Shown piece by piece: positions 40,034 to 55,629 of a DNA stretch of 64,000 nucleotides; the first letter of the stretch is position 1; each line of letters opens with the position of its first letter. The position numbers and the translations under genes are program-made. The notes beneath the pieces were generated by a model that made no database searches, was not told the origin of the DNA, and saw nothing but the letters and a program-made list of their open reading frames with translations. The DNA lies in contig DASVDT010000134.1 in assembly GCA_036380955.1 (NCBI GenBank), positions 12,571-76,570 of the forward strand. Direction: 5' to 3'. Source of the stretch: Candidatus Limnocylindria bacterium. GTDB lineage: Bacteria > Chloroflexota > Limnocylindria > QHBO01.

Positions 40034-40108
40034 TGGAGGCGACGACGGGAATCGAACCCGTGTACGCGGTTTTGCAGACCGCTCCCTGAACCACTCGGGC
40101 ACGTCGCC
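40034..40108 (-). tRNA. tRNA-Cys (anticodon GCA)
   Basis: Acceptor GGCGACG/CGTCGCC, anticodon loop CTGCAAA, T-arm ACGGG-TTCGATT-CCCGT and encoded CCA. Confidence 0.9.
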
Positions 40109-40120
40109 ACCGTTGTCAGC

Positions 40121-40279
40121 CGGCTGGCCCGCGGGGATTCGAACCTCGGTTCACGGATCTAACGTCCGTTCGCCGTTCGGCTCAAATCGTGCTCAGATCG
40201 ATGATCTGCGCGCTCCTGACAGCCAAACCTGACAGCCAACTGGCGCCATCGAGGCACCAAGGCCGAAGCATAGCGCAGC
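40121..40279. repeat. repeat copy A: diverged 3-prime fragment of tRNA-Gln plus about 110 nt of element-arm sequence (distal att remnant)
   Basis: 40121-40170 aligns to the 3-prime 50 nt of tRNA-Gln (55423-55472) with several substitutions. 40171-40279 aligns to 41998-42106 with roughly 1 mismatch in 8-9 by eye and two 1-nt indels. Lies 12 nt from tRNA-Cys. Confidence 0.8.
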
Positions 40280-40638
40280 GGTCCGGAGACGCCAAAGAGT
40301 CCACGGGACCGGCGATGTTGACGTGCTGATCCCGGGCTTGTTGGAGTTCAAGCACTGCGCGCGGGTTCAGCTCATGCGGTCAGCCGTCGGGCGAGACTCA
40401 CACACCATGAGGCCCGCGACGCGGGCCGGGTCCCGGGCGCCAAGCGAGCGCCGCCGGCGCATCGACTCCGAGATCTCTTCAGTCGTTGTCGCGATGGCGA
40501 TCATCACGGCCCTCATCGTGCCGCCGATCTTGCCGTTACTCGTGCGTCGCGCCGAAGACGGCGCCGCGGATGCTGCGTCCGAGGCCGGGCGGCCACCCGG
40601 CACCGAGGGAACGCCTGGGCGGCGAAACTCGGCGCCTG

Positions 40639-40983
40639 TCAGTCGGTCGGCGGCGCCGCGCGGTACGTCATCACCTCCACCTTCTCCAGAGTGATGAGGC
40701 CGTCGCCGAGCATGTTGTCCAACTCCGGGAGCACGGCGCGAACCTTCTCCTCGGTGTCAACCGCCTCGATCAGGATCGGGAGGTCCTCCGAGAGGCTGAG
40801 AATCCTCGTCGCGTGCAGGTGCTGCCTGGCGCCGAAGCCCTCGATGCCGCGCAGCACAGTCGCACCGGCGAGCCCGCGCTCACGCAGCCGTTCGATGATC
40901 GCCTGGTAGAGCGGCTTGCCGTGCCAATGGTCGCTCTCGCCGAGATAGAGGCGGACCAGCAGGCCAGTTCCGTGGAGCTTCAT
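40639..40983 (-). CDS. DUF190 (PII-like) protein, CrcB-associated
   Basis: MKLHGTGLLVRLYLGESDHWHGKPLYQAII...LRGIEGFG is the typical DUF190 sequence. The ATG shares 1 nt with the crcB stop. Confidence 0.85.
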   Translation of the reverse strand: MKLHGTGLLVRLYLGESDHWHGKPLYQAIIERLRERGLAGATVLRGIEGFGARQHLHATRILSLSEDLPILIEAVDTEEKVRAVLPELDNMLGDGLITLEKVEVMTYRAAPPTD

Positions 40984-41369
40984 CAGATTGCCCTCCCAAG
41001 GGAGACGCCGGCGACAACGGCCACGACGCCGACGACGATCGAGCCCATGAGGTTGGCGGAGGCATAGAGCCACGCGCCGTCCTCGATCATGCGCCAGCTC
41101 TCCAGAGCCAGCGTCGAAAAGGTGGTGTACGCACCCAGGAAGCCGATCATCAGCGGGGCGCGCATCGAGGCCGGCAAGGCAGCGCGCTCAACGATCAACG
41201 CGAAGAGCAGACCCAGCAGCAGCGACCCAGATACATTGATGACGAACGTCCCCCACGGCAGTGCGCCACCGGTCCACGCGGTCATGCGCGCGTCGATGAA
41301 ATAGCGGGCGATCGCCCCGGCGAAGCCGCCGACCCCCACAAGCAGGACGGATATCACGGGCATCTCCAC
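40983..41369 (-). CDS. crcB: fluoride ion channel CrcB/Fluc
   Basis: 128 aa with 4 TM helices. GGFAGAIARY and GFLGAYTTFST motifs. Preceded by a fluoride riboswitch. Confidence 0.92.
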   Translation of the reverse strand: MEMPVISVLLVGVGGFAGAIARYFIDARMTAWTGGALPWGTFVINVSGSLLLGLLFALIVERAALPASMRAPLMIGFLGAYTTFSTLALESWRMIEDGAWLYASANLMGSIVVGVVAVVAGVSLGRAI

Positions 41370-41385
41370 ACGCGATCAATGCGAT

Positions 41386-41448
41386 CGGTAGGAGCCATCA
41401 GCCCTGGTGGGCGGTTGTTGGTGAGCCCCATCACCCGCTGGAAGCATG
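41386..41448 (-). promoter_or_regulatory. fluoride riboswitch (crcB RNA motif)
   Basis: The minus strand reads GCGGGUGAUGGGGCUCACCAACAACCGCCCACCAGGGCUGAUGGCUCCUACCG. This parallels the crcB motif as I recall it from the Thermotoga example: GGNGAUG...CC stem, AAC-CGCC, CCC/GGG hairpin, CUGAUGG and a pseudoknot-capable GGCUCC. Confidence 0.8.
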
Positions 41449-41467
41449 CTGGGAGGCGGCTCCGACG

Positions 41468-41759
41468 TCAATCCGGCGCAGCGCTGGTCCTGGGCGCGTA
41501 TCGCATCGAGAGCATCTCGAGGCTCGACCAGCCCAGCGTCTTCTGGACGTCATGCAGGTTCATCCCCAGCGCGCGCATGATCGAGGCGGCACTGTGCCGA
41601 AGGTCGTGCCACCTCAGCGCGGAAGGCCTTGCTCGACAGGCAGACGGTGTCAGCGCCGATCGACACTGGCCGCGCGCACTGGGTGGCCGTCTCCACCGCC
41701 ATGGCGTCGGGGCCGCGTGCATACGAGCCCGTAGTCCGTCCAGACCTCGCCCTGGTCAC
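41468..41759 (-). pseudogene. tyrosine recombinase (phage integrase) C-terminal remnant
   Basis: RWHDLRHSAASIMRALGMNLHDVQKTLGWSSLEMLSMRY matches the HxLRH ... LGH(W)-S ... Y catalytic box. Only about 480 nt are available before repeat B, and the upstream part is in another frame, so the gene is truncated and frameshifted. Confidence 0.6.
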
Positions 41760-41947
41760 CGGCGGCGGCGCTCCTCACCCGTGAGGAGCGCCTGCAAAGG
41801 CTCCTTTAGGTCCTGGCCGCGCCGCTGCCGCGCGCCACGCTCAGCGGCGCCAACGAATGGGCAATGCGGCGATGCTGCATGACAGCCAACGTGGCGACAC
41901 GGGACGCCTCTGCGTGTGCCCACAGAGGGGAAGTTGAGGGTGAAGGC

Positions 41948-42106
41948 TGGCTGCCCCGCGAGGATTCGAACCTCGGTTCACGGATCCAAAGTCCGCTCGC
42001 CGTAGGCTCAAATCGTGCTCAGATCGGGTGATCTGTGCGCTCCTGACAGCCGACGCTGACAGCGAACTGGCGCCATCCAGGCACCGAGGCGGAAGCATAG
42101 CGCAGC
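41948..42106. repeat. repeat copy B: perfect 50-nt copy of the tRNA-Gln 3-prime end plus about 110 nt of element-arm sequence (att site)
   Basis: 41948-41997 is identical to 55423-55472 by base-by-base comparison. 41998-42106 is homologous to 40171-40279. Confidence 0.85.
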
Positions 42107-42251
42107 CTACGCGCATGGGCCAAAGCAGGCTATGGGAGGTTCGGCCGATCGACCCGATGATCGGAGTCGCGCGCTCCGCCGACCTGACTCCCCCTATTTC
42201 GCACCCAGCCACACGCAGAACCGACTTGTCGCCGCCGTTGGCTCACCGAGT

Positions 42252-43655
42252 TCAGGGCTGGAGGTCGGCGGCGCGTTGGGCTTGGCCCGGGGCGATGCCC
42301 GCGCGTCGAGCGAGGCGGGTGGCGGCCGTGCCGGACCTGTCCATGACGCCACCCTCGTCGGTGGACGTCAGGCGTCCGTCTCGCAGGAGGATTCGGCCGT
42401 CGACCATCGCGAACGACGCCTCACCTCCGGTGGCCGCATAAACCAATGACGAGATTGGATCGTGTACGGGAGCTGCAAACGGGTTCGCGAGCGAGAAGCC
42501 GGCCAAGTCGGCGCGTTTTCCTGGGGTGATCGACCCGATCTCGCCCTCCATGCCGATGGCCCGCGCGCCCTCGATCGTCGCCATCTGGAGCACGCCCAAG
42601 GCGCTGATGATCTCGGGGTCCTCGGTGGCGACCTTATGCAGCAGCGCGGTAGCCTTGAGGACTTCGAGCATGTTCTGGTTGTTGTTGCTCGCCGGGCCAT
42701 CGGTCGCCAGCCCGACAGTCATACCCGCTGCCAGCATTGCCGGCACTGGCGCGATACCCGCGGCCAAGTACATGTTGCTGATCGGGTTGTGGGACACCTT
42801 GACGTCGTGACGCGCGAGGACGTCGACCTCAGCGTCCTGCACCTTCGTGCAGTGAGCGGCGAGCAGATCAGGTCCGAGAAACCCGACGTCCGCAAGGAAG
42901 TCGACTTCGCCCTTGCCGTAGGTCGCCGCAGCATAGGACGTCTCGAACGTCGTCTCCGCCATGTGGTAGGTGATCAGGACCCCTCGTTCATCGGCGAACT
43001 CACGGGTCGCTCGCAGGGCTGGCTCATCCACCATCCACAGGAGGCAGGGCGCAACACCGATCTGGATTCGCGGATGACTTCGATGAAGTTCGAGCAGGCG
43101 CGCGCAGTCCTGCAACGCCCGGTCCGCGGACTCGATCAGTGCCGGTGGGAGGCCCTGCTCGGTTCCCTGGGTCACGAATCCCCGCGCCACGATCGCGCGC
43201 ACTCCCACTGAGTCGATGCCGGCGACGACCGCATCGGTAAGGTGCGGACGCGGATGGGCATACATGAAATCGACGATGGTCGTGCAGCCAGAACGAACAG
43301 CCTCGACCGCACCATGCGCAGCCGCCGCTTCACAGTCCTCGTCCAGCAGCGCGGCAGCCGCGGGACCGGTCATCTCAACCAGCCAACGGTTCAGGGGTCG
43401 ATCATCGCCCAGACCCTTGAGCAAGGTCTGGAACAGGTGGGTGTGGGTGTTTACGAGTCCGGGAACGAGGACCGCCTCGTTACCAATGTCAATGCGTGCA
43501 GCCGCGGGGTGAGCCGCGGCGAGGACGTCGGCCACTCCGACGTCGACGATGTCACGGTCGGTCACAAAGACGCCGCCACGCTCGATGATCCCGAAACGGG
43601 AGTCCATCGTCGCCACGGTCCCGGCGGTGAGGAGTAGGCCGTCAGCGTCTGCCAT
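42252..43655 (-). CDS. amidohydrolase, ATZ/TRZ-SsnA/deaminase-like (metal-dependent hydrolase superfamily)
   Basis: PGLVNTHTHLFQT (HxH), ITYHMAET, AAHCT and GLATDG motifs of the Amidohydro_1 deaminase/chlorohydrolase group. ATG 43655 shares 1 nt with the upstream stop. Confidence 0.85.
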   Translation of the reverse strand: MADADGLLLTAGTVATMDSRFGIIERGGVFVTDRDIVDVGVADVLAAAHPAAARIDIGNEAVLVPGLVNTHTHLFQTLLKGLGDDRPLNRWLVEMTGPAAAALLDEDCEAAAAHGAVEAVRSGCTTIVDFMYAHPRPHLTDAVVAGIDSVGVRAIVARGFVTQGTEQGLPPALIESADRALQDCARLLELHRSHPRIQIGVAPCLLWMVDEPALRATREFADERGVLITYHMAETTFETSYAAATYGKGEVDFLADVGFLGPDLLAAHCTKVQDAEVDVLARHDVKVSHNPISNMYLAAGIAPVPAMLAAGMTVGLATDGPASNNNQNMLEVLKATALLHKVATEDPEIISALGVLQMATIEGARAIGMEGEIGSITPGKRADLAGFSLANPFAAPVHDPISSLVYAATGGEASFAMVDGRILLRDGRLTSTDEGGVMDRSGTAATRLARRAGIAPGQAQRAADLQP

Positions 43656-44644
43656 CAGACCTGCAGCACTACCTTGCCCTGTGTCGTCCGGCCCTCGAGC
43701 GCTTGGTGTGCTTCTGAGATCTGCTCGAGCGGCATCAGATTTCCGATGGGGATCGTGAGACGCCCTGCCGACGCGGCCGCCACGACCTGTCGAACCCCGC
43801 GGCGCCATCGCGGACTGCCAGGCTTGGCATGCAGGACCTCAAACCCAGCCATCGATGTCGAGCGCTCATACAGCTTCTTGCGCACGGGGAAGTCTGGCTC
43901 GCCGGCAGCTTCGCCAATGTTGATGAGGCGGCCGAACGGCCGCAGCGCGTCGAAGGTCCGTGGGAGAATCTCGCCACCGAGCGAGTCGATGGCGAGGTCG
44001 ACGCCTCGCGAAGCAGTAGCGTCAAGCGCCGCTGCGACGAAGTCTTCCCTACTGCGATCCACGACGCGCTCCGCACCCAGTTGTCGTGGAAGATCCTGCT
44101 TGGCTGTACTACCAACCGTACCGATGACGCGCGCTCCGGCGAGAGCTGCGAGTTGGACTAACGCCAATCCGACGCTTCCTGCGGCCGCATGGACCAGGAC
44201 GACCTCTCCACGTCGGATGCCGTGAGCGGTATACAGCAGGTGGTACGCCGTCAGGGCGGCGAGCGGGAATGCCGCTGCGTCCGCGAGCGAAAAGCCTTCT
44301 GGAATCGGTACCAGGTACGACACCGGGACCGCCACGTACTCGGCGCAGCCACCGACGAGTCGCGGTCCGCACAGCGCGGCCGTCGGCTTGCCAATCAAAT
44401 CGCGCGACACACCCCCGCCGACGTCGACGATCGTGCCGCTCGCCTCAGCACCGAGGACGACTGGATAGCTGACCGGATCGGGGTAGATGCCCTGTCGCTT
44501 CTGGATGTCACTCCAGTTGGCTGCTGCAAAGGCCACGCGCAGGAGGACCTCGCCGCGCCCAGGAACCGGCCGGTCGACAGCCTGGAGCAGCGGTTCGCCG
44601 GTCGCAGACGGTCGCCCCACCACCACTGCGCGCATCAGCGTCAT
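43655..44644 (-). CDS. NADPH:quinone oxidoreductase-like medium-chain dehydrogenase/reductase
   Basis: MDR fold: GEVLLRV ... GAEASGTIVDVG ... Rossmann motif VLVHAAAGSVG. ATG 44644 lies 8 nt after the upstream stop. Confidence 0.85.
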   Translation of the reverse strand: MTLMRAVVVGRPSATGEPLLQAVDRPVPGRGEVLLRVAFAAANWSDIQKRQGIYPDPVSYPVVLGAEASGTIVDVGGGVSRDLIGKPTAALCGPRLVGGCAEYVAVPVSYLVPIPEGFSLADAAAFPLAALTAYHLLYTAHGIRRGEVVLVHAAAGSVGLALVQLAALAGARVIGTVGSTAKQDLPRQLGAERVVDRSREDFVAAALDATASRGVDLAIDSLGGEILPRTFDALRPFGRLINIGEAAGEPDFPVRKKLYERSTSMAGFEVLHAKPGSPRWRRGVRQVVAAASAGRLTIPIGNLMPLEQISEAHQALEGRTTQGKVVLQV

Positions 44645-44654
44645 CGGACCGTCG

Positions 44655-45701
44655 CTACTCGTCGACGATCGGCGTTGGATCATATCCGCGCCACCCATCA
44701 TTCTTCCGTAGAAACAGGCCGGCGAGGAATGTCAGCATCGCTGAGTTGAACGTTCGGGTCGTGATCTCCGCGACATCGCGGTATGGATCAAGCTCGACGA
44801 AGTCAATCGCGGCGACTCGCGGGTCTTGGCCGAGCATGAAGAGCGCCTCGAACAGATCGGTGGGGTGGATCCCGTCGGCGGTCGCTGCTGCCGTTCCCGG
44901 CGCATAGCCGACCTCCAGCACGTCGATGTCAACGGTGACGTAGATCGCGTCCACCTCGCGGCCAGCGACGTCCAGGGTTCGGCTCACGACATCGTCGATG
45001 CCGCCCCGGCGAATCTCTCGCGCTGTGATGATCGTTCCGCCCTTGCCCTCTACCCAGCGCTTGTAATAGCTGGCGTTCATGAAGCCGTGAATGCCGACCT
45101 GAACCAGGTTCGCACCTGAGACTCGCACGCCGGACTGCAGGATCCCGCGGATCGGTGTTCCGTTGGTGGGCCCGTGGTCCATGACGCGCACGTCGTTGTG
45201 CGCGTCGAAGTGGATCAAGCCAACCTGCTGATCGGGGTGAGCCTTGCAGTAGGCCCGGACGGCTGGCGCCGTGATCGCATGATCACCGCCGACGATCAGC
45301 GGAAAGAAATCCTCCGGCTGATTGAACAGCTCGATGAGCGACTGCTCGATGTTCTCTATGCCCTCGCGGAGATCGAGCACCGGCACTGCAACATCGCCGA
45401 TCTCGCGGACCTTCATCGAGGCGAGATCCACGTCGTAGTCAGGCGAGTACGTCGTGTTGATCGCCCACGCTTCCTTGATCGCGTTCGGAGCCGCGTATGC
45501 GCCATTTGCGAAGATGGACGTCTTGCTCGAGGGGATGTTGATGATGCCGACGTCGAGGGCAGACTCCCAATCCCAGGGCTCGATCCAGTTGTTGACTCGA
45601 AACTCGTGCGCGTCATTCCAATGCAGCCGCTTCCGCTTTTCGGGCAGCAGCAGGTGCGGAATGCCCCGCGGATTGAGCGGAAGGTCGTAGAAGTCACCCA
45701 T
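44655..45701 (-). CDS. arginase-family ureohydrolase paralogue 1 (formimidoylglutamase/agmatinase-like)
   Basis: Metal-ligand motifs GGDHAIT, HFDAHNDV and TVDIDVLEV..PGT. ATG 45701 overlaps the gntR stop by 8 nt. Confidence 0.85.
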   Translation of the reverse strand: MGDFYDLPLNPRGIPHLLLPEKRKRLHWNDAHEFRVNNWIEPWDWESALDVGIINIPSSKTSIFANGAYAAPNAIKEAWAINTTYSPDYDVDLASMKVREIGDVAVPVLDLREGIENIEQSLIELFNQPEDFFPLIVGGDHAITAPAVRAYCKAHPDQQVGLIHFDAHNDVRVMDHGPTNGTPIRGILQSGVRVSGANLVQVGIHGFMNASYYKRWVEGKGGTIITAREIRRGGIDDVVSRTLDVAGREVDAIYVTVDIDVLEVGYAPGTAAATADGIHPTDLFEALFMLGQDPRVAAIDFVELDPYRDVAEITTRTFNSAMLTFLAGLFLRKNDGWRGYDPTPIVDE

Positions 45702-46443
45702 GTCTGGCTCCTTGATCATTCTGTGTTGGGTCAGCGGAGTCGCTAGCCGTAAGGGATTGACCAGGCGCGCCTTGTGCGACCGCCAGTGCGGCTCCGCTGA
45801 GCATGGCGTTCGATCTCCTGAACAAGGCCCAGCACTCGTTGGCCGCTTCGTCAACGTCTCCTTCGACGATGCGCGCCACGAAGCGTTCGTGATCGGCGAG
45901 CAACGGACCGAAGCTGGCTCTTCCGGCGACCGTTTCGAGCCGTATCAAGGTGCGAAGCAGTCCAACTTGGGCTTCCCAAGCCTGGAGCAGCCGCTGATTG
46001 CCTGAGACGCGGCAGAGTTCCTCGTGGAGTGTCAGATCGGCCTCGATGAACTCGACCCGATGGCCGTCCGCTGCCGCCGTGCGCATACGGTCGAGTGCCC
46101 GGCCCAAGCGCTCGCGCGCCGCTGAGTCATCTGCCGCGATGACCAGTCTGGCCGCCCCGCTCTCCAGCGAGGCGCGGACTTGGTAGATCTCGTTGATGTC
46201 TTCGGCCTTGAGTTCAGCGACCGATACGCCCCTTGGTGCCTCGTCGTGCACGAGCCCTTCCGCGCGAAGGGTTGCCAGCGCTTCGCGCACTGGGCCGCGA
46301 CTGATCTGCAGCTGACGTGCGATATCAGCCTCGATGAGTCGCGTCCCGGGGCGGAGTGACCCATCCAGGATTTTCTCGCGCAGAAGTTCGGTCGCTGTCG
46401 ACGCCAAAGTCCGCGCCTCGAGAGGCTCCAAGCCGGGAATCAT
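45694..46443 (-). CDS. GntR/FadR-family transcriptional regulator (wHTH + FCD domain)
   Basis: N-terminal LRPGTRLIEADIARQLQISRGPVREALATLRAEGLV wHTH and an all-helical FCD-like C-terminal domain. First gene of the minus-strand operon. Confidence 0.9.
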   Translation of the reverse strand: MIPGLEPLEARTLASTATELLREKILDGSLRPGTRLIEADIARQLQISRGPVREALATLRAEGLVHDEAPRGVSVAELKAEDINEIYQVRASLESGAARLVIAADDSAARERLGRALDRMRTAAADGHRVEFIEADLTLHEELCRVSGNQRLLQAWEAQVGLLRTLIRLETVAGRASFGPLLADHERFVARIVEGDVDEAANECWALFRRSNAMLSGAALAVAQGAPGQSLTASDSADPTQNDQGARHG

Positions 46444-46460
46444 CAGAACGCGTCACCGAC

Positions 46461-46481
46461 TGTTGACTGTTGACTGTCAAC
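46461..46481. promoter_or_regulatory. putative GntR operator: TGTTGAC-TGTTGAC-TGTCAAC
   Basis: Three contiguous 7-nt half-sites. 46469-46481 is the perfect palindrome GTTGAC-T-GTCAAC. It overlaps TTGACT -35-like hexamers, with TATCCT at 46487-46492. Confidence 0.5.
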
Positions 46482-46523
46482 CATCCTATCCTCGCCTCCG
46501 GCTCTCGGTCAATGGTGCGGTGA

Positions 46524-48104: not shown

Positions 48105-49183
48105 CCGGTGTCGCGCGGCGAGTCTCGGTCCGTGTTCTGCCACCTCTGGGTGCAATCGCCGCCGCGCTGGCGGTCTCCGGGATTCTCATCGCACTCGCTG
48201 GTGTCAACCCGCTGGACGCGTATGCCGCGATGGTGCAGGGATCGGTCGGGAGCCTCAACTCGCTCGCGGTCACCGGCGTGCGGATGACGCCCATCCTTCT
48301 GACGGGTCTTTCCGTCGCCATCGGCTTTCGGGCCGGCCTGTTCAACATCGGCGGCGAGGGTCAGCTGTACGTCGGGGCCGCCGGGGCAGCCGCGGTTGCA
48401 CTGCTTCCCCTCAACGTGCCCGGTGTGATCCACATCTTCCTCGCGCTCGCGGCGGGAGCCGGTGGCGGTGCGCTTTGGGTGCTCGTGCCCGCGTACCTAC
48501 GGGCTTACCGCGGCGTGAGCGAGGTCGTGACCACCTTGATGCTCAACTTCGTCGGCATCATCTTGGTCAGCTACTTGGTGGATCCGATCCTCGGCCCGAT
48601 GGGCGAACATGGCGCGTCGTACGCCCAGTCGCTCCCCATTCAGGCGTCGGCCGAACTCCCCATCCTTCTCGAGCGTACGAGCCTGCACGCCGGCCTGTTG
48701 ATCGGCCTTGCCTTCGCCGTTGGCCTGTATCTGCTGATCCGCTACACAGGCTTCGGCTTCAGACTGCGGATGCTGGGGGCCAACCCGACAGCCGCCCGAT
48801 TTGCGGGGGTCAAGTCCGCGCGCGAGATGATGCTGATCATGCTGGCCAGTGGCGGGATCGCCGGACTGGCTGGCGCTGTCGAAGTCATGGGGCTGCGCCA
48901 TCGACTGTACGCCGACTTCTCTCCAGGCTTCGGTTACGACGGAATCGCGGTGGCCCTTCTGGCGGATGCACACCCCCTCGGCGTCGTGGCCGCTTCGGCC
49001 TTCTTCGGAGCGCTGCGGGCGGGATCCAGCCTAATGCAGCAGGTGACGCGAATCGAGACCTCGATCGTGCTGATCATCCAGGCGCTGACCATCCTGTTCG
49101 TCATAGCCGGCTTGTTCCGGGGACGCTTCCGACGCTTCCGGTTGCGGACGCCGGTGCGCGCTGCGGAGCCGACTGATGCTTGA
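48101..49183 (+). CDS. ABC transporter permease (BPD_transp_2 type)
   Basis: 360 aa, about 9-10 TM helices. 4-nt overlap with the ATPase gene. Confidence 0.9.
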   Translation: MTGVARRVSVRVLPPLGAIAAALAVSGILIALAGVNPLDAYAAMVQGSVGSLNSLAVTGVRMTPILLTGLSVAIGFRAGLFNIGGEGQLYVGAAGAAAVALLPLNVPGVIHIFLALAAGAGGGALWVLVPAYLRAYRGVSEVVTTLMLNFVGIILVSYLVDPILGPMGEHGASYAQSLPIQASAELPILLERTSLHAGLLIGLAFAVGLYLLIRYTGFGFRLRMLGANPTAARFAGVKSAREMMLIMLASGGIAGLAGAVEVMGLRHRLYADFSPGFGYDGIAVALLADAHPLGVVAASAFFGALRAGSSLMQQVTRIETSIVLIIQALTILFVIAGLFRGRFRRFRLRTPVRAAEPTDA

Positions 49184-50132
49184 TGCAGCCGCGATCACCG
49201 ACTGGGGTAGTGCAGCAATGCGGCTGACGGCGCCGCTCGCGATCACCGTGATCGGTGGCGTGTATGCCGAACGCAGTGGCGTGTTCAACATCGGCATGGA
49301 AGGCATGATGTTGGTTGGCGCCTTCACCGCGGTGAGCACAAGCTTCTACCTTGAGCCGATCATGCCTGCCGGCTTGGCGGTGATGATGGCGACGCTCGCG
49401 GCCATGCTCGCCGCAGCACTGGCGAGCTTGGTCCACGCGTACCTGACCATCAGCCGTGGGGCGAACCAGATCATTTCTGGCGTCGCGATCAACCTGATGG
49501 CATTGGGCCTGACGAATACGCTTCACCGTGCCGTGTTCGGCGCCACCGGTCGCCAACGCGTCGCCGGCTTTCCCTCGATCGAGCTGCCGGTTCTGGGTGA
49601 CGTGCCGATCGTCGGCGACGTGTTCTTCAACCAGTCACTGGCGATCTACCTCGTTTACATCCTTCCGCTTATCGCCCTGTTCGTCCTCTACCGAACGACC
49701 TGGGGCCTCAACATCCGCGCAGCCGGGGATGCACCGTCCGCGGTCGACACCGCCGGACTCTCAGTCTCCAAGATCCGTTACGCGACGGTCCTTTTCAGCG
49801 GCGCTATGGCAGGGCTCGGAGGGGCAGTCCTCGCTTTGGGCGCGGTCCGGTACTTCACGCCGGGCATGACGGCTGGCCGCGGGTTCATCGTGCTTGGCGC
49901 GATCATCGTGGGTCGCTGGAACCCACTTCTAGCGGTTGCGGCGTGCCTCCTGTTCGGTGCCGCCGATGCGTTCCAGCTGCGGGCGCAGGCGTTCGGCCTC
50001 GGCATTCCTCACCACTTCTTCGTGATGCTGCCCTACCTGCTCGCTACGGCGGCCGTTGCGGGCGTCATTGGTCGTGTCATGCCGCCCACGCAACTCGGGA
50101 TCAACTATCGCCGCGAGGATGCTGATGAGTGA
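49176..50132 (+). CDS. ABC transporter permease (second subunit)
   Basis: 318 aa polytopic membrane protein, paralogous in style to the preceding permease. 8-nt overlap. Confidence 0.9.
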   Translation: MLDAAAITDWGSAAMRLTAPLAITVIGGVYAERSGVFNIGMEGMMLVGAFTAVSTSFYLEPIMPAGLAVMMATLAAMLAAALASLVHAYLTISRGANQIISGVAINLMALGLTNTLHRAVFGATGRQRVAGFPSIELPVLGDVPIVGDVFFNQSLAIYLVYILPLIALFVLYRTTWGLNIRAAGDAPSAVDTAGLSVSKIRYATVLFSGAMAGLGGAVLALGAVRYFTPGMTAGRGFIVLGAIIVGRWNPLLAVAACLLFGAADAFQLRAQAFGLGIPHHFFVMLPYLLATAAVAGVIGRVMPPTQLGINYRREDADE

Positions 50133-50931
50133 GACTGTGAAGAACCAGCCAAGAGTTCGAATGGCGGAACTGACGCGTCCCGAGTTTGAGGCGCGTATCA
50201 GGACGAGCGTGATCATCCTGCCGGTCGGCTCGACGGAGCAACATGGACCCCACCTCCCGCTCGGCGCTGACGCGCTGCAGGTGGATGAGATCGCGGTTCG
50301 GGTTGCGCGTGAAGCGAACGCGATCGTCGCGCCCACGCTTCCATACGGCTATCGGTCCGGAGCGCGAAGCGGCGGCGGAGAGATCTTCTCGGGCACGACG
50401 AGCCTCAGTGGTGAGGCCTTGACACTGACGGTCCGCGACATTCTTCATGCGCTCATCCGCCATGGTGCTCGGCAGATCGTGGTCCTCGATGGGCACTACG
50501 AGAACAACATGTTCTTGGAAGAGGCGATTCATCTCGCGCTGGCAGCTTCCTCTGGCGTTGACGTGTCCATTCTCAAGCTGCTGTGGGTGGACGGGATCGA
50601 CGCAGGTACGCTCGAGCGGGCATGGCCAGACGGATTCCCCGGCTGGGCGCTCGAGCACGCCGCACACCTCGAGACGTCGACGATCGCCGCCATCCGTCCT
50701 GACCTCCTTCACCCAGAGGAGGTCTATGCCAGCGCCCCGGCGGACCTTCCTCCCTACGACGTCTATCCCCAACCGGACGACTTCGTTCCGACATCGGGCG
50801 TGCTTTCAGATCCCAGTAGGGGCAACGCGGACTCAGGCAACGCGCTGATCGATAGCGCGGTAAAGGGGCTCGTTCAGATCATCCGCGACCGGTTCCAACC
50901 ACCAGTAGTAGCAGTCAGGAGAGAGGAATGA
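50125..50931 (+). CDS. creatininase-family amidohydrolase
   Basis: GSTEQHGPHLPLGAD, LDGHYEN and EHAAHLETS match the creatininase metal-ligand pattern. ATG 50125 overlaps the permease stop by 8 nt; ATG 50161 is an alternative. Confidence 0.88.
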   Translation: MSETVKNQPRVRMAELTRPEFEARIRTSVIILPVGSTEQHGPHLPLGADALQVDEIAVRVAREANAIVAPTLPYGYRSGARSGGGEIFSGTTSLSGEALTLTVRDILHALIRHGARQIVVLDGHYENNMFLEEAIHLALAASSGVDVSILKLLWVDGIDAGTLERAWPDGFPGWALEHAAHLETSTIAAIRPDLLHPEEVYASAPADLPPYDVYPQPDDFVPTSGVLSDPSRGNADSGNALIDSAVKGLVQIIRDRFQPPVVAVRREE

Positions 50932-51935
50932 CCACAGTCCAAGTACCTTCGCGGCACCGATTGTCGTCGCTCGGCGCGGGCCTCGCGACACTCACGCTCG
51001 TTCTCGCTGCATGCGGCCAAGGGGGCACACCCAGCGCCTCGGCCGACGGAGCAAGCAGCGGCGCCTCCTCCGATCGCAGCGCCGCCGTGCTCTTCCCCGG
51101 CTTGGTCGACGATCAGTCATGGAATCAGGCTGGCTACGAAGGGCTCACGCAGGCGGAAGACGAGGGGGTGGAGATCGCCTACACGGAGAACGCGAGCCAG
51201 GATCAGCAGGTGGAGCTGTTCCGCAACTACGCCCAGCAGGGCGTCGATGTCGTCATCGGTCACGGCGGCGAGTACATGGATTCGGCCCTTCAGGTTGCCG
51301 AGGAGTTCCCTGATACGCAGTTTGTCGTGACGAACGGCGACAAGAGCGCGGCGAACGTCACGTCCCTGGCACTGAGCTATGGGGACATGGGCTACCTAGC
51401 TGGCGTGCTGGCAGCGAGCATGACCGAGTCGGGCCACATCGGCATCGTGGTCGGTGAGACCATTCCTATTGCCGAAGATGCGATCCGCGCCTTCAAGGCC
51501 GGCGCCGCACGCGTGAATCCGGATGTGGAGGTCTCCGAAAGCGTCACCGGCGACTGGGCTGACGTCGCCAAGTCGCGCGAGGCGGCCTTGGCCCAGATCG
51601 CGGATGGCGTCGATGTGCTGTGGCACCTGCTTGATGCTGCCGACGCCGGCGTCATGAGTGCCGCTGAAGACGAGGGCATATACGTCATCGGTCTGTACGC
51701 TGACCAGAGCGCATTGGCGCCGACGGCTCACATCGGAGCGTCACTTTCCGATGCATCCGCCGTCGTATTCGGAGCCGCCAGCGGCGAGATTGAACTGGAC
51801 GGTCAGGTCCACAACGAAGGTGTTGCAGAGGGCGTGGTGAGCTTCGGCGCCTACGCGGACGTCGTTCCGGAGGAAGCGCGCCAGGCCGTCACCGAGGCGG
51901 AGGAAGGCCTCCGCACCGGCGAGGCCACCTACTAG
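50928..51935 (+). CDS. BMP-family ABC substrate-binding lipoprotein
   Basis: Signal peptide with lipobox LVLAAC, then a PnrA/Med-like periplasmic binding fold (VLFPGLVDDQSWNQAGYEG...). ATGA overlap with the creatininase gene. Confidence 0.9.
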   Translation: MTTVQVPSRHRLSSLGAGLATLTLVLAACGQGGTPSASADGASSGASSDRSAAVLFPGLVDDQSWNQAGYEGLTQAEDEGVEIAYTENASQDQQVELFRNYAQQGVDVVIGHGGEYMDSALQVAEEFPDTQFVVTNGDKSAANVTSLALSYGDMGYLAGVLAASMTESGHIGIVVGETIPIAEDAIRAFKAGAARVNPDVEVSESVTGDWADVAKSREAALAQIADGVDVLWHLLDAADAGVMSAAEDEGIYVIGLYADQSALAPTAHIGASLSDASAVVFGAASGEIELDGQVHNEGVAEGVVSFGAYADVVPEEARQAVTEAEEGLRTGEATY

Positions 51936-51947
51936 CCTCCACTTGAG

Positions 51948-51976
51948 CCGGGGGACCGATCCGTTCGGTCCCCCGG
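51948..51976 (+). other. intercistronic 12-bp stem-loop after the binding-protein gene
   Basis: CCGGGGGACCGA-tccgt-TCGGTCCCCCGG, a perfect 12-bp stem with no U-tract, 13 nt after the stop. Confidence 0.5.
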
Positions 51977-52000
51977 CTGGGCTACTCCTTGGAGGACTCA

Positions 52001-53005
52001 ATGTCTCACCCACTTCCGAATCAGCGGGCGTTCGGCTTCGCCGGCATACCGAGCTTCCTTCGGGTGCCAGTGACCGCCGACTTGGCGGCTCTAGATGCCG
52101 ACGTCGCCGTCATTGGGGTGCCCAGTGACGTGGGGTCGCCCTTCTTGCCAGGCTCGCGCATGGGGCCACGCGGCATCCGCGAACAATCCTTGCGCTTCGG
52201 CAGCGAGGGGTACTACGACCATCGTGATCGGCGCACCTACCTGGAGGATGTGCTGCGCGAGCGGCGTATCACCGACGTTGGCGACGTCGACGCGACGCCT
52301 TCGGACACTGAAGTGACGTTCGAGCGTACGACAGAGGCGCTGGGCGGCATCCTGAACAGCGGAGCCCTTCCGGTGGTGCTGGGTGGCGACCACGCCATCA
52401 CCTACCCCGTTGTGCGGGCGTACGAGTCGCCTGTTCACGTGGTCCACTTCGACGCGCACATCGACTACTCACCGTTCCAGCACGGCTTCATGAACACGAA
52501 CATGCACGCCTTCCGCCACATCCGGAAGATGCCGCACGTCCAGAGCCTCACGCAGGTCGGGATCCGGAGCCTTCGCAACGGGCGCGATGCGATGGAAGAC
52601 GCGCTGAACGATGGAAACCGGATCGTGGACATGGAGGAGTTCCGAGATCTCGCGGCGCCCGGGCTGGCCGAGATACTGCCCGCTGACGCGCCAACATACG
52701 TCAGCATCGACATCGATGTGCTCGACATGTCACTCGTGCCAGGCTGCGTCTCGCTCGAGCCGAACGGCATGGCGTACGCCGAGTTGCGTGACTCGCTGGT
52801 CGCACTGAGCGAGCACGCCAACATCGTTGGTTTCGATCTGGTTGAGGTGAACCCGGTCCTCGACGTCGGTACCAGCATGACCTCATACATCGCGGCGCAC
52901 ACCATTCTCGAGTTCCTGGGTCACATCTGCGCTCAACCCCGTTGGACGGAAAGACGGCAGGAGAGAGCGGAGCAGCGACGTCTGATGGAGGAATCGAAGC
53001 GGTGA
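52001..53005 (+). CDS. arginase-family ureohydrolase paralogue 2 (divergent substrate loop)
   Basis: GGDHAIT, HFDAHIDY and SIDIDVLD are conserved. The loop after the third motif reads PGCVSLEPNG instead of the canonical PGTGTPExGG. ATG 52001 is preceded by GGAGGA; the track uses TTG 51989. Confidence 0.85.
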   Translation: MSHPLPNQRAFGFAGIPSFLRVPVTADLAALDADVAVIGVPSDVGSPFLPGSRMGPRGIREQSLRFGSEGYYDHRDRRTYLEDVLRERRITDVGDVDATPSDTEVTFERTTEALGGILNSGALPVVLGGDHAITYPVVRAYESPVHVVHFDAHIDYSPFQHGFMNTNMHAFRHIRKMPHVQSLTQVGIRSLRNGRDAMEDALNDGNRIVDMEEFRDLAAPGLAEILPADAPTYVSIDIDVLDMSLVPGCVSLEPNGMAYAELRDSLVALSEHANIVGFDLVEVNPVLDVGTSMTSYIAAHTILEFLGHICAQPRWTERRQERAEQRRLMEESKR

Positions 53006-53883
53006 TGCCAACCATCGACACACACGTCCATCTGTATCGGACCGCCGAAGAGGGCGAACGCGCGAAATCCGGCTACGAGATCTGGGAGTACGGTGAGGGC
53101 GGAGGCCCGCAGTTCGCCGACTGGTCGGGCGACCCCGACGACGCCGTCCGGGCGATGGAAGTGGCGGGCGTGGACTATGTCGTCGTGACGAACATGCTCG
53201 ATGACACTGCCTCATACGCGGATCCGGGCGCCGAACTCGTGGCATACAACGAGTGGCTGTGCGGGCTGGCCGAACGTGACCGGCGCTTCGTCGCGTGTCT
53301 GGGAGTTGATCCTGGCTGCCTCTCGGTTCCGGACCTGGTATCTCACCTGCGGGCGATGGCGCCGCGCATCCCGGCGGGCATCAAGCTCCATCCGCCGGTG
53401 CACCACATCGACATGTCGGACGAGTCGTTCTGGCCCGTTCTGGAAACGTGCCAAGAACTGGGGCTTCGAGTCGTTTCGCATTCGGGTCCAAGCCGCGACG
53501 GAAAGCAATACGGTGAGCCGAATGCGTTTCGCCCGATACTCGAGGCGTTTCCGCGCCTTCGCTTGGTGCTCGCTCACCTTGGCGGGGCTGCCTGGCAGCA
53601 GGTACCCCAGCTGGCCGACGACTACCCCCAGGTGTATTTCGACTGCTGCGAGATCATCGAGTGGTTGGGAGCGACGCGGGCACCCTCGCAGGAGCAGTTC
53701 GTCGACCTTGTCCGACACATCGGCAGCGATCGGGTGATGATGGGCTCCGACTTCCCCTGGTACGACATGGCCCGCACGGTCGAACTGGTGCGAGGGCTGC
53801 CGCTGACGGACGACGAGCGCGGTGCGGTGCTCGGCGGGAACGCCATGCGCTTCTTCGGCCTACCAGAACCGGCGTCAGCGTGA
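53005..53883 (+). CDS. amidohydrolase-2 family (TIM-barrel metal hydrolase/decarboxylase-like)
   Basis: MPTIDTHVHLY (HxH) N-terminus, VLAHLGG, and a C-terminal MMGSDFPW with conserved Asp. The ATG shares 1 nt with the upstream TGA. Confidence 0.85.
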   Translation: MPTIDTHVHLYRTAEEGERAKSGYEIWEYGEGGGPQFADWSGDPDDAVRAMEVAGVDYVVVTNMLDDTASYADPGAELVAYNEWLCGLAERDRRFVACLGVDPGCLSVPDLVSHLRAMAPRIPAGIKLHPPVHHIDMSDESFWPVLETCQELGLRVVSHSGPSRDGKQYGEPNAFRPILEAFPRLRLVLAHLGGAAWQQVPQLADDYPQVYFDCCEIIEWLGATRAPSQEQFVDLVRHIGSDRVMMGSDFPWYDMARTVELVRGLPLTDDERGAVLGGNAMRFFGLPEPASA

Positions 53884-53895
53884 CGGAGCAGTCTG

Positions 53896-54903
53896 ATGCT
53901 TCGCCGGCTGTCCCCATGGCGGCGGCTCGACGAGCGTACGACACTTGAGGTCGGAGTGACCCGCAAGATCCTGGGACAGACCGATGCTACCCGCGTGCCA
54001 CGCTACGCTGGCATTGGGACGTTTGCCCGGCTCCCCACGCTCGACCAGGTCGAGGCGTACGACGTGGCGGTCGTCGGCGTGCCGTTTGATGCCGGAGTCA
54101 CCTACCGACCGGGCGCTCGGTTCGGTCCAGGAGCGATCCGCCAGGCGAGTCGCCTGTTGCGCCCATACAACCCTGCGCTGCAGGTCAGACCCTTCGACGA
54201 CCAGCAGGTTGTCGACGCGGGTGACATCGCAGCTAGCCCGTTCTCGATTGAGGACGCGCTGGGTGCTATTGAAGAGCGTCTCGCCGCCATCATCGCGACG
54301 GGAGCGCGGTACGTCCTGCTAGGTGGAGACCACACGATCGCGTTGCCGTCGTTGCGCGCTTTGCATCGACGACACGGACCTATTGCCCTTGTGCACTTCG
54401 ATGCGCACCTGGATACCTGGGACACCTACTTTGGCGCCCCGTACACGCATGGGACACCCTTCCGACGTGCCTTTGAAGAAGGGCTGCTCGATCCGAACGC
54501 CGCGGTCCACGTCGGGATCCGCGGTTCGCTCTACGCGGAGCAGGACTTGGGCGACGATGCGCGAATGGGCTTCAGCATCATCACGACGTCCGACGTCGAG
54601 ACGATCGGCGTGGGCCAGGTGTCAGAGAGGATTTTCGCGCGAGCCGCGCACCGACCTGTCTACGTTTCGGTGGACGTGGATGTCCTCGATCCAGCTCATG
54701 CACCGGGTACTGGAACGCCCGAGGCGGGCGGGCTGACCTCCCGAGAGTTGTTGACGATACTGCGGTCGATCGCGCGGGTCGAAATGGTCGGCGCCGACAT
54801 TGTGGAGGTCTCACCGCAGTACGATCACGCAGAGATCACCGCGGTCGCCGCCGCCAACGTGGTCTATGAGTTGTTATCCGCTATGGCGCTGAAAGCCCGG
54901 TGA
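53896..54903 (+). CDS. speB: agmatinase/guanidino-acid hydrolase (canonical arginase-family ureohydrolase, paralogue 3)
   Basis: [31 protein letters not shown] and [23 protein letters not shown] are the canonical SpeB/GbuA-type motif set. The symbol denotes family only. Confidence 0.88.
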
Positions 54904-54912
54904 AAGGGTGAC

Positions 54913-55248
54913 GTGAGACTTCGGCTATCCCGCCTGTTCGCGCCGCGCCCTGCTGGCCGGTGGGTAAGGCTCGACGGCGGCTTGAGGTTACCGGAGTCGC
55001 CTGGCGTGGTGATGCTCGCCGCCCCGACGGTGATCTGGGTAAGCTCCACGGACAACATCGCGCACGCCGTCCGCGCCGTCATCCGCGAGGCTCACCCCTT
55101 GCAGGTCGGGACTGCGCGTTCAGCCGCCGGGTACGTTTGGTGGCACCTCTGCAGTCGATCGACAGCAGATCGCTGGGCCGTATCCCTGCGGCGGAGGCTC
55201 TGCCCCAACCCCTCTGCCGACACCGTGGCGCTCGAGCATCTCCACTAG
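54913..55248 (+). CDS. hypothetical protein (last ORF of the island operon)
   Basis: 111 codons from GTG, 9 nt after the speB-like stop. Third positions are mostly G/C in this frame. No family recognised. Confidence 0.3.
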   Translation: MRLRLSRLFAPRPAGRWVRLDGGLRLPESPGVVMLAAPTVIWVSSTDNIAHAVRAVIREAHPLQVGTARSAAGYVWWHLCSRSTADRWAVSLRRRLCPNPSADTVALEHLH

Positions 55249-55422
55249 TACCAGCCTTGTAGGTCACCCGTTGGTAGGGCGGCCCGCAGGTTCGGATGCA
55301 CTCCGGTCACGTAGGAGGGGCGGTCTTACGCTGGACCGATCACACCGATTGGGAACGAGTGGCGCCTCAATGTGGCTCGCGGCCCATTTGCGTGCCTGAC
55401 CCAGCCTGTTGAGCGTGATTCG

Positions 55423-55496
55423 TGGCTGCCCCGCGAGGATTCGAACCTCGGTTCACGGATCCAAAGTCCGCTGTCCTACCACTAGACGACGGGGCA
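55423..55496 (-). tRNA. tRNA-Gln (anticodon TTG); integration target
   Basis: Acceptor TGCCCCG/CGGGGCA (U1-A72 as in bacterial tRNA-Gln), anticodon loop CTTTGGA, TTCGAAT T-loop and encoded CCA. Confidence 0.92.
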
Positions 55497-55553
55497 CCGC
55501 TCGTGCCTCACGCTAGCAGGTCAGATTTCGTGCAACCAGCCCAGACATGAAAA

Positions 55554-55629
55554 TGGAGCGGAAGACGGGACTCGAACCCGCGACCCTCACCTTGGCAAGG
55601 TGATGCTCTACCAACTGAGCCACTTCCGC
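55554..55629 (-). tRNA. tRNA-Gly (anticodon GCC)
   Basis: Acceptor GCGGAAG/CTTCCGC, anticodon loop TTGCCAA, T-arm GCGGG-TTCGAGT-CCCGT and CCA. Confidence 0.92.

Follow-up and report, generated by a model that had tools for sequence, protein, structure and literature searches.

Tandem decayed genomic islands, probably inserted one after the other, in the tRNA-Gln(UUG) gene of Candidatus Limnocylindria

The tRNA-Gln gene on the chromosome of Candidatus Limnocylindria (Chloroflexota), from a soil genome, holds two consecutive pieces of foreign DNA that add up to 15.3 kb, an inner segment of 1.8 kb (segment 2) and an outer segment of 13.4 kb (island 1). In the 64-kb stretch of DNA analyzed here (the window), this locus is quite probably a tandem array of decayed genomic islands whose members were inserted one after the other by tyrosine integrases into the 3' half of tRNA-Gln(UUG). 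The reading is carried by the repeated tRNA ends, an empty site in relatives, an integrase remnant, an att arm homologous to a junction of integrase and attR in another genome, and the age order of the tRNA fragments.

The target gene (55423-55496, minus strand, anticodon ttg) was identified by ARAGORN and with 64.1 bits by the Rfam tRNA model; it has been regenerated and is intact. Copy C (55423-55472, minus strand), the attL core of the outer island, consists of its last 50 nt, which extend from the anticodon stem through the encoded CCA. An earlier note on this DNA had claimed that these 50 nt recur perfectly at 41948-41997 and in diverged form at 40121-40170, and both copies were recovered at exactly these coordinates. 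Copy B (41948-41997, minus strand) is a displaced tRNA-Gln 3' fragment identical to copy C at 50/50 positions (blastn E=4e-24), and represents both the attR core of island 1 and what was once the attL core of segment 2. Copy A (40121-40170, minus strand) is the oldest displaced fragment and forms the attR core of segment 2; it matches copy C at 44/50 positions (E=9e-13 over 47 nt). It no longer folds as a tRNA; pairing is disrupted in the T-stem and the acceptor, and CCG stands in place of CCA. All three copies are co-oriented, the recurrence is limited to the last 50 nt of the tRNA and breaks off sharply at the anticodon stem, and no displaced fragment of any other tRNA was found in the window.

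The native downstream flank (40034-40120, minus strand) consists of tRNA-Cys(GCA) at 40034-40108 and a 12-nt gap at 40109-40120, and copy A begins exactly 12 nt beyond tRNA-Cys, as the note had reported. The first 11 nt of this gap (40109-40119) are the native spacer ccgttgtcagc. The ancestral order predicted by the note, tRNA-Phe/Gly/Gln and then tRNA-Cys, was found 12-15 nt apart and empty in six of six related Candidatus Limnocylindria contigs. The closest three (L001-L003, 92-95% nt identity) share the identical spacer, and the other three (L005, L168, L169) are more distant. Copy A lies exactly where these empty sites have the 3' end of tRNA-Gln, and the extra DNA relative to them, 15,302 nt, falls exactly within the tRNA-Gln 3' half. 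L001 was compared across the tRNAs by blastn; the 3' 50-nt block of tRNA-Gln and the 24 nt of its 5' half that were checked are identical between the window and L001-L003 and L005. The intervening content differs among relatives.

Next to their tRNA cores, arm A (40171-40280, minus strand; the P arm of segment 2) and arm B (41998-42107, minus strand; the P arm of island 1) have 110 nt of non-tRNA sequence in common. The homology claimed for this stretch was borne out by an identity of about 90% and a local alignment score of 156, where 300 shuffles gave at most 34. It ends sharply at GCATAGCGCAGC in both arms, at the same nucleotide and codon inside an integrase 3' end. Arm B, defined by alignment with arm A and with the metagenome contig L006, contains in tRNA orientation the degenerate last ~15 integrase codons, the repeats CGCTGTCA and GGCTGTCA, a hairpin, a conserved TGAGCACGA block and the adjoining core B; it is identical in L171 and in the sequenced part of L170. 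Arm A has the same 5' truncation point, the hairpin and two perfect GGCTGTCA repeats, and this pair reads GGCTGTCAGGTTTGGCTGTCAGG, identical to L006. Both the conserved-stem, variable-loop hairpin and the tandem repeats described earlier are present. The hairpin, CAGATC-loop-GATCTG, lies at 40194-40208 (loop GAT) and 42020-42035 (loop GGGT), while the repeats are CTGACAGCC at 40216 and 40229 in arm A, and CTGACAGCC at 42043 and CTGACAGCG at 42056 in arm B. All four exact TGACAGCC octamers of the window are no more than 160 nt away from copy A or copy B. A short GTTGAGnGTGA match left of copies B and C was rejected as a shared end; it is not significant, and the two segments therefore have one end in common only.

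The layout of L006 is collinear with arms A and B, running from the end of a 79%-identical integrase through GGCTGTCAGGTTTGGCTGTCAGG, the hairpin, TGAGCACGA and a tRNA-Gln 3' fragment to tRNA-Cys 12 nt further on. Its GGCTGTCA repeats start only 6 nt past the integrase stop codon and separate it from the tRNA-Gln fragment, which identifies the arm as the integrase-proximal one of attP. A full-length relative of the integrase, P0242 (PF00589/phrog_1), is preceded by an HTH_17 excisionase-like ORF, and in the intact relative L181 an excisionase-like HTH gene lies upstream of the integrase. Among reference genomes the nearest integrase relatives are from Solirubrobacterales (Actinomycetota), at 35-40% identity.

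Segment 2 retains a tyrosine-integrase pseudogene (41495-41793, minus strand) of 100 codons, corresponding to residues 287-386 of a 410-aa relative. It was recognized by Pfam PF00589 on an 84-aa ORF and by tblastn matches to P0121 (74-88% identity) and P0242, and 41776-41494 is 77% identical to L181 at the DNA level. The HxxR box (HDLRH) and the catalytic Tyr region are kept, and the damage comprises one in-frame stop, one frameshift and the loss of the N-terminal 286 codons. The integrase responsible for the insertion is now dead, and a search of the window found a working integrase in neither segment. The left end of the segment (41794-41947; P' arm) has one GGCTGTCA copy at 41880-41887, and integrase homology does not reach it in protein and DNA searches. 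The cargo consists of a fluoride riboswitch (41382-41444, minus strand; Rfam RF01734, 54.8 bits vs gathering score 34, E=6e-13) upstream of the fluoride exporter gene crcB (40983-41357, minus strand; Pfam PF02537; TIGR00494 84.2 vs cut-off 80.45), and a DUF190 gene (40639-40983, minus strand; Pfam PF02641). Both genes rest also on gene calls in L170 and L171, and the stop codon of one overlaps the start codon of the other. The 358 nt between DUF190 and arm A (40281-40638) showed no family match and no similarity to the island 1 ends. Because the pseudogene and arm A are two separate, non-contiguous integrase 3' remnants, segment 2 is perhaps the wreck of more than one element, and a count of two elements may be too low.

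Island 1 is a lower-GC catabolic island with a creatininase, three ureohydrolases and a BMP-type ABC transporter. Its cargo (42108-54903; Pfam and NCBIfam) has a GC content of ~0.62-0.66 vs 0.68-0.72 in the flanks, and its gene boundaries were taken from gene calls on the near-identical contigs L167 and L176. On the minus strand, Pfam assigned a TRZ/ATZ-type amidohydrolase (42252-43655), whose best non-self homologue is only 70% identical, a Zn-ADH/quinone oxidoreductase (43655-44701), a ureohydrolase (44655-45701) and a GntR/FCD regulator (45694-46443). On the plus strand, Pfam assigned an ABC ATPase (46524-48104), two permeases (48101-49183 and 49176-50132), a BMP-family binding protein (50928-51935), a ureohydrolase (52001-53005) and an Amidohydro_2 protein (53005-53883), and NCBIfam a creatininase (50125-50931; TIGR04448, 274.6 vs cut-off 235) and an agmatinase-family protein (53896-54903; NF002564, 318 vs 302). 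The tRNA-proximal end (54904-55422), presumed to be the P' arm, is non-coding. No ORF in it has a Pfam or PHROG match, no gene or integrase/excisionase remnant was recognizable, and tblastn with full-length P0242 or the xis-like ORF gave no match. It also has no significant similarity to the P' end of segment 2. A search of island 1 for integrase, excisionase, transfer or phage genes found none; its integration is therefore read from its att-like ends alone.

Several lines of evidence point to insertion of the inner segment first and the outer one later, since core A has decayed to 44/50 while core B is perfect, one scaffold piece has only the inner segment, and island 1 is ~7-fold less diverged than the flank. 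A comparison of the window with L176 shows differences at 7/11,527 sites in island 1 and at 15/3,527 in the adjacent chromosome (Fisher p=1e-5); segment 2, unlike island 1, is not significantly less diverged than the flank. The scaffold piece, L170 1606-11862, is a distinct haplotype that reads tRNA-Gly, tRNA-Gln, segment 2, copy A and tRNA-Cys without island 1. Copy A differs between strains that are otherwise ~99.6% identical, and one arm A variant has lost a 13-nt repeat unit. Three changes are common to all copy-A variants and include G to A at tRNA position 27; this change is also present in L006 and is therefore element-derived, lying 5' of the crossover. The claim of serial integration of two related elements thus stands as to serial insertion, in view of the empty site, the integrase remnant and the L006 arm homology. 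The relatedness is confined to a 160-nt arm-plus-core unit; the cargo and the other ends are unrelated.

Mechanistically, the element attP would have had a core that duplicates the tRNA from its anticodon stem-loop through CCA (positions ~26-76). The core would be flanked by the P arm, with the integrase 3' end, two GGCTGTCA repeats as putative arm-type integrase sites and the hairpin, and on the opposite side by the P' arm. Recombination in the anticodon stem-loop region, presumably in the loop itself, would split the tRNA gene, which the element's copy would restore, and the old 3' half would end up at the element's far end. Segment 2 (or its ancestors) would have inserted first, leaving copy A beside tRNA-Cys, and island 1 would then have entered the restored tRNA, placing copy B between both segments. 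Subsequent deletions would have stripped all of the integration machinery but the 100-codon integrase fragment.

This stepwise scheme has to accommodate the missing mobility genes of island 1, the unrelated P' ends, the two integrase remnants in segment 2, and an arm end point that would not be expected to coincide after two independent integrase deletions. In addition, the island-free junction is a single piece of an N-gapped scaffold that also holds island 1 fragments, neither an excised circle nor an intact family member with both att ends was found, and two large contig collections contain no close relative of the integrase. The common truncation codon hints that the integrase acted from elsewhere. 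It is conceivable, though we consider it somewhat unlikely, that island 1 never had its own integrase and was a CIME-like, cis- or trans-mobilizable unit, with the att ends and a pre-truncated 110-nt P arm as its sole mobility determinant and the integrase encoded elsewhere, for example by the ancestor of the neighboring pseudogene. Since the arms are ~10% diverged yet have the same 5' truncation point, the cut predates their split; the perfect core B and the low divergence of island 1 indicate a recent insertion, and arm B would therefore already have lacked the integrase when island 1 arrived. No integrase trace was found in island 1 even with an 84%-related full-length query, presence/absence polymorphism possibly occurs exactly at the att borders, and CIMEs and their accretion are established elsewhere (PMC5704250). 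If such an integrase were present, island 1 may still be excisable. However, an integrase at the other island end (54904-55422) could have been cleanly deleted, the common boundary could be a recombination hotspot or the result of inter-arm conversion, RecA recombination between the 50-nt repeats could equally give the polymorphism, and a functional cognate integrase was not seen in the window.

Arrival of the 15.3-kb composite in one event, after accretion in another host and by integration as a whole or homologous recombination at the tRNA cluster flanks, is improbable. Accreted composites are known to transfer (PMC5704250), both parts are present on most contigs recovered, and the window lineage and the empty-site relatives differ strongly in their Gln-Gly spacers, as would be expected if flanking DNA had been imported; but the unequal decay of cores A and B, the significantly low divergence of island 1 and not of segment 2, and the distinct L170 haplotype speak against it. 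An origin of the repeats by local tandem duplication, as tRNA pseudogenes or through assembly joins at the 50-nt repeat is highly improbable and already disfavored: although short-read assemblies break here (Logan contigs L167, L172, L177, L179 and L180 stop inside or at the repeat end) and L170 is visibly confused at the repeat, the flanks of each copy are unrelated save one common arm and are not duplicated beyond the repeats, the repeated block has a sharp boundary, copy A is exactly at the native position, the integrase remnant and the integrase-linked arm exist, and independent assemblies reproduce junction B (L171) and junction C (L176, L178 and a JGI contig).

The preferred reading, successive insertion and decay, can be compared with known systems. 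A lambda-type attP has core-type and arm-type integrase sites. Similarly, short direct GGCTGTCA repeats, putative binding sites, lie here in the arm beside the core, the opposite arm has one more copy, the integrase gene adjoins attP, and an excisionase-like gene is upstream in L181; unlike in lambda, the repeats closely follow the integrase stop, and the family is only distantly related to characterized integrases. Actinomycete integrative elements such as pSAM2 and SLP1 integrate into tRNA genes, and the segment in which they are identical to the gene stretches from the anticodon loop to the 3' end. They resemble the present elements in their high-GC Gram-positive-type hosts, the ~50-nt tRNA identity block and the integrase beside attP; the likeness is one of layout, and no replication or FtsK-like transfer genes are present here.

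The Islander/TIGER catalogue of tRNA-gene (tDNA) islands includes an "anticodon-centred attP" class and documents 125 tandem arrays at one tDNA among 3919 islands (Hudson, Lau & Williams 2015, PMC4383910). As in that class, a tyrosine-integrase element sits in a tRNA gene with an identity block from the anticodon stem to the 3' end, the target gene is restored, and a co-oriented 3' fragment marks the far end. Islander admits an array member only if it has an integrase gene and is at least 2 kb long (PMC4383910); here island 1 lacks an integrase, segment 2 has a 100-codon pseudogene in 1.8 kb, and the host belongs to an uncultured class of Chloroflexota. CIMEs and tandem accretion are known from ICESt1/ICESt3-related elements of Streptococcus thermophilus and from Streptomyces pathogenicity islands (Guedon et al. 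2017, PMC5704250). Consistent with these, integration and transfer genes have been lost with attL and attR kept, the members are in tandem at the 3' end of the target gene with a chimeric internal att site, and integration, decay and new integration appear stepwise. Unlike CIMEs, no functional partner (ICE/IME) and no conjugation or relaxase genes were seen here, both members have just a truncated P arm in common, and mobilization is putative. Tandem accretion of decayed tRNA-gene islands is a known kind of event, and this locus is a clean but ordinary case of island gain. Its cargo, a fluoride exporter under riboswitch control and a cluster for creatinine/guanidino-compound catabolism together with the transporter, would now be effectively fixed.

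The window has eight tRNA genes, every one of them on the minus strand, including tRNA-Cys(GCA) (40034-40108), tRNA-Gln(UUG) (55423-55496), tRNA-Gly (55554-55629), and tRNA-Phe (55661-55736). The earlier note had claimed that the 3' 50 nt of tRNA-Gln (copy C, 55423-55472) recur perfectly at 41948-41997 (copy B) and in diverged form near tRNA-Cys (copy A, 40121-40170), and both repeats were confirmed. Copy B matched copy C at 50/50 positions (blastn E 4e-24), and copy A, which starts 12 nt after tRNA-Cys, matched at 44/50 (blastn E 9e-13). Copy A is unable to form a T stem or an acceptor stem, and it carries three changes common to all strains plus strain-specific changes. The identity block begins at tRNA position 26-27 and thus includes the entire anticodon stem-loop, corresponding to the anticodon-centred attP class of tDNA islands (PMC4383910). 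The base at position 27 is G in the tRNA but A in copy A and its strain variants, as well as in contig L006 of another organism, indicating that the crossover lies 3' of position 27. Displaced fragments of other tRNAs were not found in the window, and alignment gave no significant similarity between the sequences on the other side of copies B and C.

Candidatus Limnocylindria is a class of Chloroflexota, and the HtpX-like peptidase flanking the locus has homologues of up to 98% identity, several of them annotated as belonging to this class. In three contigs whose flanks share 92-95% nucleotide identity with the window (L001-L003), the order was HtpX, tRNA-Phe, tRNA-Gly, tRNA-Gln, a 12-nt spacer, tRNA-Cys, and RibD_C, as expected from the predicted ancestral locus with tRNA-Phe/Gly/Gln directly before tRNA-Cys. 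Their spacer, ccgttgtcagc, is identical to window 40109-40119. In the more distant contigs L005, L168, and L169, tRNA-Cys follows tRNA-Gln after 13-15 nt, so tRNA-Gln is followed by tRNA-Cys 12-15 nt on in 6/6 relatives. This adjacency indicates that all six sites are empty and that copy A occupies the exact native position of the tRNA-Gln 3' end. The uninterrupted target site that the TIGER comparative criterion seeks in relatives is present, and the window holds 15,302 nt of extra DNA within the 3' half of tRNA-Gln. The interval between tRNA-Cys and tRNA-Leu(UAA) (39312-40033) is a second variable spot beside the tRNA cluster; it contains RibD_C alone in the window and L001, ~900 extra nt in L005, and other genes in L168 (~1.2 kb) and L169 (~4 kb), and no tRNA fragments were seen in the window's interval. 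The tRNA-Gln/tRNA-Gly spacer (55497-55553) reads …GGTCAGATTTCGTGCAACCAGCCCAGAC… in the window lineage and …GGTCGGCCGCGGACCGCACCAGCCGGAC… in the empty-site relatives (L001 compared), a divergence far above that expected from the surrounding 92-95% identity, and it shows single-base variation (CCC, CC, or CT) among island-bearing strains.

The ~110 nt of homologous non-tRNA sequence said to adjoin copies A and B (arm A, 40171-40280; arm B, 41998-42107) proved to be ~90% identical, with an alignment score of 156 vs a maximum of 34 among 300 shuffles, and both arms stop sharply at one common nucleotide. The hairpin and tandem CTGACAGCC repeats described there were also found, at the same positions. 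The 64-kb window contains four exact TGACAGCC octamers, all adjoining copies A or B, and a further GGCTGTCA copy is located at 41880, in the P' arm of the inner segment (segment 2). The P' ends of segment 2 and of the outer segment (island 1) share no homology. A structured RNA in the arms is not supported, because folding was not clearly better than in shuffled controls (z = -1.0 to -2.6). A marginal inverted repeat of ~34 nt and ~79% identity (41883-41918 and 42208-42245; score 29 vs shuffle maximum 28) flanks arm B and its core. Both halves hold AGCCAACG-GGCGACA, an extension of the TGACAGCC motif, which may therefore be an extra candidate site for the integrase or an accessory protein.

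Segment 2 (40171-41947, 1,777 nt) contains a tyrosine-integrase pseudogene (41495-41793) interrupted by one in-frame stop and one frameshift; its counterpart in a 410-aa relative is residues 287-386. The remnant, which keeps HDLRH and the Tyr region, has lost 286 N-terminal residues along with the region of the first catalytic Arg; a complete PF00589 catalytic domain (R...HxxR...Y) in a single frame is absent. In addition, segment 2 codes for a DUF190 protein and for CrcB (TIGR00494 score 84.2 vs cut-off 80.45), and a fluoride riboswitch (41382-41444; Rfam RF01734, 54.8 bits vs gathering score 34) lies directly upstream of crcB, the two forming a fluoride riboswitch-crcB unit. The pseudogene and arm A both carry integrase codons following the catalytic Tyr and are thus two separate remnants, so segment 2 may derive from the decay of more than one element. 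For this reason we rejected the idea that the crcB cassette had simply inserted at the catalytic Tyr codon of a single integrase gene.

The stitched integrase remnant had one close protein match, the fragment P0121 on L006 (79% identity). On this contig, GGCTGTCAGGTTTGGCTGTCAGG, a hairpin, and the conserved TGAGCACGA block follow in order from 6 nt past the integrase stop codon, and after them come a tRNA-Gln 3' fragment, 12 nt, and tRNA-Cys. Arms A and B are collinear with this integrase-to-tRNA-Gln-fragment stretch, the L006 hairpin having a different sequence at an equivalent position, and the ~45 nt at their upstream ends are similar to the final codons of the integrase (L-R-Y-A-S-A-L-V-P vs K-R-Y-G-H-L-V-P-E-L). 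Judged from this comparison of sequences, the shared arm is an integrase-linked attP arm. An exhaustive search gave a full-length relative, P0242 (410 aa, PF00589, phrog_1), which is preceded on its contig L181 by an HTH_17 excisionase-like ORF. Together with the L006 arrangement, this ORF gives the integration module of the family the order xis, int, arm repeats, and core, with the integrase adjoining the displaced fragment. Lambda-type systems offer an analogy by which the GGCTGTCA repeats are probably arm-type integrase sites. An attP inside the integrase ORF, as in SSV/Mx8-type systems, was rejected because the P0242 gene has no tRNA-like core and the L006 core lies ~85 nt past the stop codon.

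Searches of genome_contigs, metagenome_contigs, and viral_contigs recovered no intact member of the family bounded by att sites at its two ends. The exact arm 21-mer had no match in genome_contigs, the gapped arm-plus-core pattern none in metagenome_contigs, and the 25-mer double repeat none in viral_contigs, where P0242 gave one weak match. Protein scans of genome_contigs and metagenome_contigs seeded with P0121 returned only relatives of <=51% identity, save one 34-residue segment at 62%. Neither a tRNA-Gln core nor arm repeats lie downstream of the more distant integrase fragments P0244, P0245, and P0246 (L182-L187). Fragments truncated at the 5' end and retaining just the C-terminal ~70-150 residues recur among these integrases (L006, L184, L185-L187, L182/L183, and window 41495-41793). 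Their homology begins at residues 259, 279, 287, and 342, and contig L006 itself begins at residue 286; several fragments lie mid-contig without room for an N-terminus, and P0245 is fused to unrelated N-terminal sequence. The clustering of these starts near residue 260-290 may be due to chance or to the retention of cis-acting sequence.

Island 1 (41998-55422, 13,425 nt) has a GC content of ~0.64 vs ~0.70 in the flanks, with perfect 50-nt cores at both ends and a P arm carrying the arm repeats. Its cargo comprises a TRZ/ATZ-type amidohydrolase, a Zn-dependent oxidoreductase, three arginase-family ureohydrolases (one above the agmatinase-subfamily cut-off), a GntR/FCD regulator, a BMP-family ABC transporter, a creatininase above its equivalog cut-off, and an Amidohydro_2 protein. 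Apart from itself, the amidohydrolase had no homologue of >70% identity. Pfam searches and tblastn with 16 integrase queries, including one 84%-related full-length integrase, found no integrase in island 1, and excisionase, phage, and transfer genes were also absent, including by tblastn with the xis-like neighbour of the close full-length integrase. The non-coding ends had no Pfam or PHROG matches.

Because core A is decayed and core B is perfect, segment 2 inserted first and island 1 later entered the regenerated tRNA-Gln. Together with the empty sites (6/6), the integrase remnant, and the integrase-linked arm, this difference between the cores supports the serial integration into tRNA-Gln that the earlier note had proposed. 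L171, from a different sample, spans junction B (island 1, arm B, core, segment 2) without a break, as L176, L178, and one JGI contig span junction C (island 1, tRNA-Gln, tRNA-Gly, tRNA-Phe, HtpX). A piece of scaffold L170 runs from tRNA-Gly through an intact tRNA-Gln, segment 2, and copy A to tRNA-Cys with no island 1, and its haplotype is distinct (a unique Gln-Gly spacer variant, one arm repeat lost, and other copy-A substitutions); this N-gapped scaffold also holds island 1 fragments, and its island-free junction is provisional. Between the window and L176, island 1 differed at 7/11,527 sites and the adjacent chromosome at 15/3,527 (p=1e-5), and this lower divergence suggests that island 1 recently arrived or spread. 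These population data support the order in which segment 2 came first. The short-read unitigs of Logan contigs L167, L172, L177, L179, and L180 stop inside or exactly at the end of the 50-nt repeat (window 41948, 41975, and 55452), so fragmentation at this point is to be expected in automated assemblies and bins of the population, and scaffolders are liable to mis-join at the repeat, as in L170.

Copy A, the oldest displaced fragment, differs at 2-4/50 positions between strains (window vs L170, L171, and L173-L175). The divergence of these strains is just 0.1-0.3% in the flanks and ~0.6% in segment 2. The substitutions are mostly at anticodon-loop positions 40159, 40160, and 40163, where the window has CTaaC, L171 CCaaG, L170-type strains TCaaG, and the tRNA CCaaA; in L171, moreover, 4 nt are deleted at the acceptor end. 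This cluster in the presumed crossover region could be the footprint of recombination or of selection locking the element in place, and the strain differences could likewise reflect a mutational hotspot in the loop or selection on the tRNA-Cys leader. In the arm A variant of L170 and L173-L175, the GGCTGTCA tandem repeat is shorter by precisely one 13-nt unit (window 40215-40227) and the hairpin loop is GGAT in place of GAT, while the hairpin stems are constant across all arm A variants.

The locus behaves as classical arrays of tDNA genomic islands do. As in the tDNA islands of Islander, an intact tRNA-Gln (55423-55496) on the minus strand is accompanied by downstream fragments of the same orientation (41948-41997 and 40121-40170). 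However, strict membership of the Islander category fails, since neither island 1 nor segment 2 contains a tyrosine integrase gene and segment 2 (1,777 nt) is also below the length range of 2-200 kb, within which island 1 (13,425 nt) falls. Tandem arrays are common in Islander (125 of 3919; PMC4383910); here their fragments (copies A and B) are present, but the integrase genes are absent or degenerate, contrary to the tandem-array rule. Both segments agree with CIMEs at the sequence level in lacking functional integration and transfer genes and in retaining attL and attR, the cores being perfect in island 1 and the attR core of segment 2 (copy A) degenerate with anticodon-loop changes included, and mobilisation in trans is putative. 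A pathway in which elements decay into att-flanked CIMEs that lack an integrase, and then accrete, has been described (PMC5704250).

Despite ~10% divergence, arms A and B share the same truncation point within the integrase 3' end, so the truncation is probably older than the recent arrival of island 1, in which case island 1 may have entered through an integrase acting in trans, in a CIME-like manner (PMC5704250). Alternatively, island 1 may once have had its own integrase at the opposite end, lost by a later deletion that left no trace. It is conceivable, although we consider it rather unlikely, that the 160-nt unit, which combines the hairpin and tRNA-Gln core with the GGCTGTCA repeats and a truncated integrase 3' end, serves integrase-less cargo as a portable attachment cassette, that island 1 and the crcB cassette each entered by means of an integrase provided in trans, and that island 1 is still excisable. 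The provisional island-free junction of L170 is the only indirect hint that island 1 might be excised or transferred with the integrase of a related element. If such insertion in trans is true, CIME-like, trans-mobilised islands would be described here for the first time in uncultured Chloroflexota.

The mechanism is textbook, and the value of the locus is descriptive and practical rather than conceptual. Both segments would escape island finders that demand an integrase gene. An attB, an attP arm, and a P0242-like integrase family are defined for a phylum with almost no genetic tools, and the empty, intermediate, and filled states are all retrievable from metagenomes. The locus is a precisely mapped case of adaptive-gene gain by the uncultured soil lineage Candidatus Limnocylindria, which acquired fluoride export and the catabolism of nitrogen-rich guanidino compounds and creatinine together with an uptake system.
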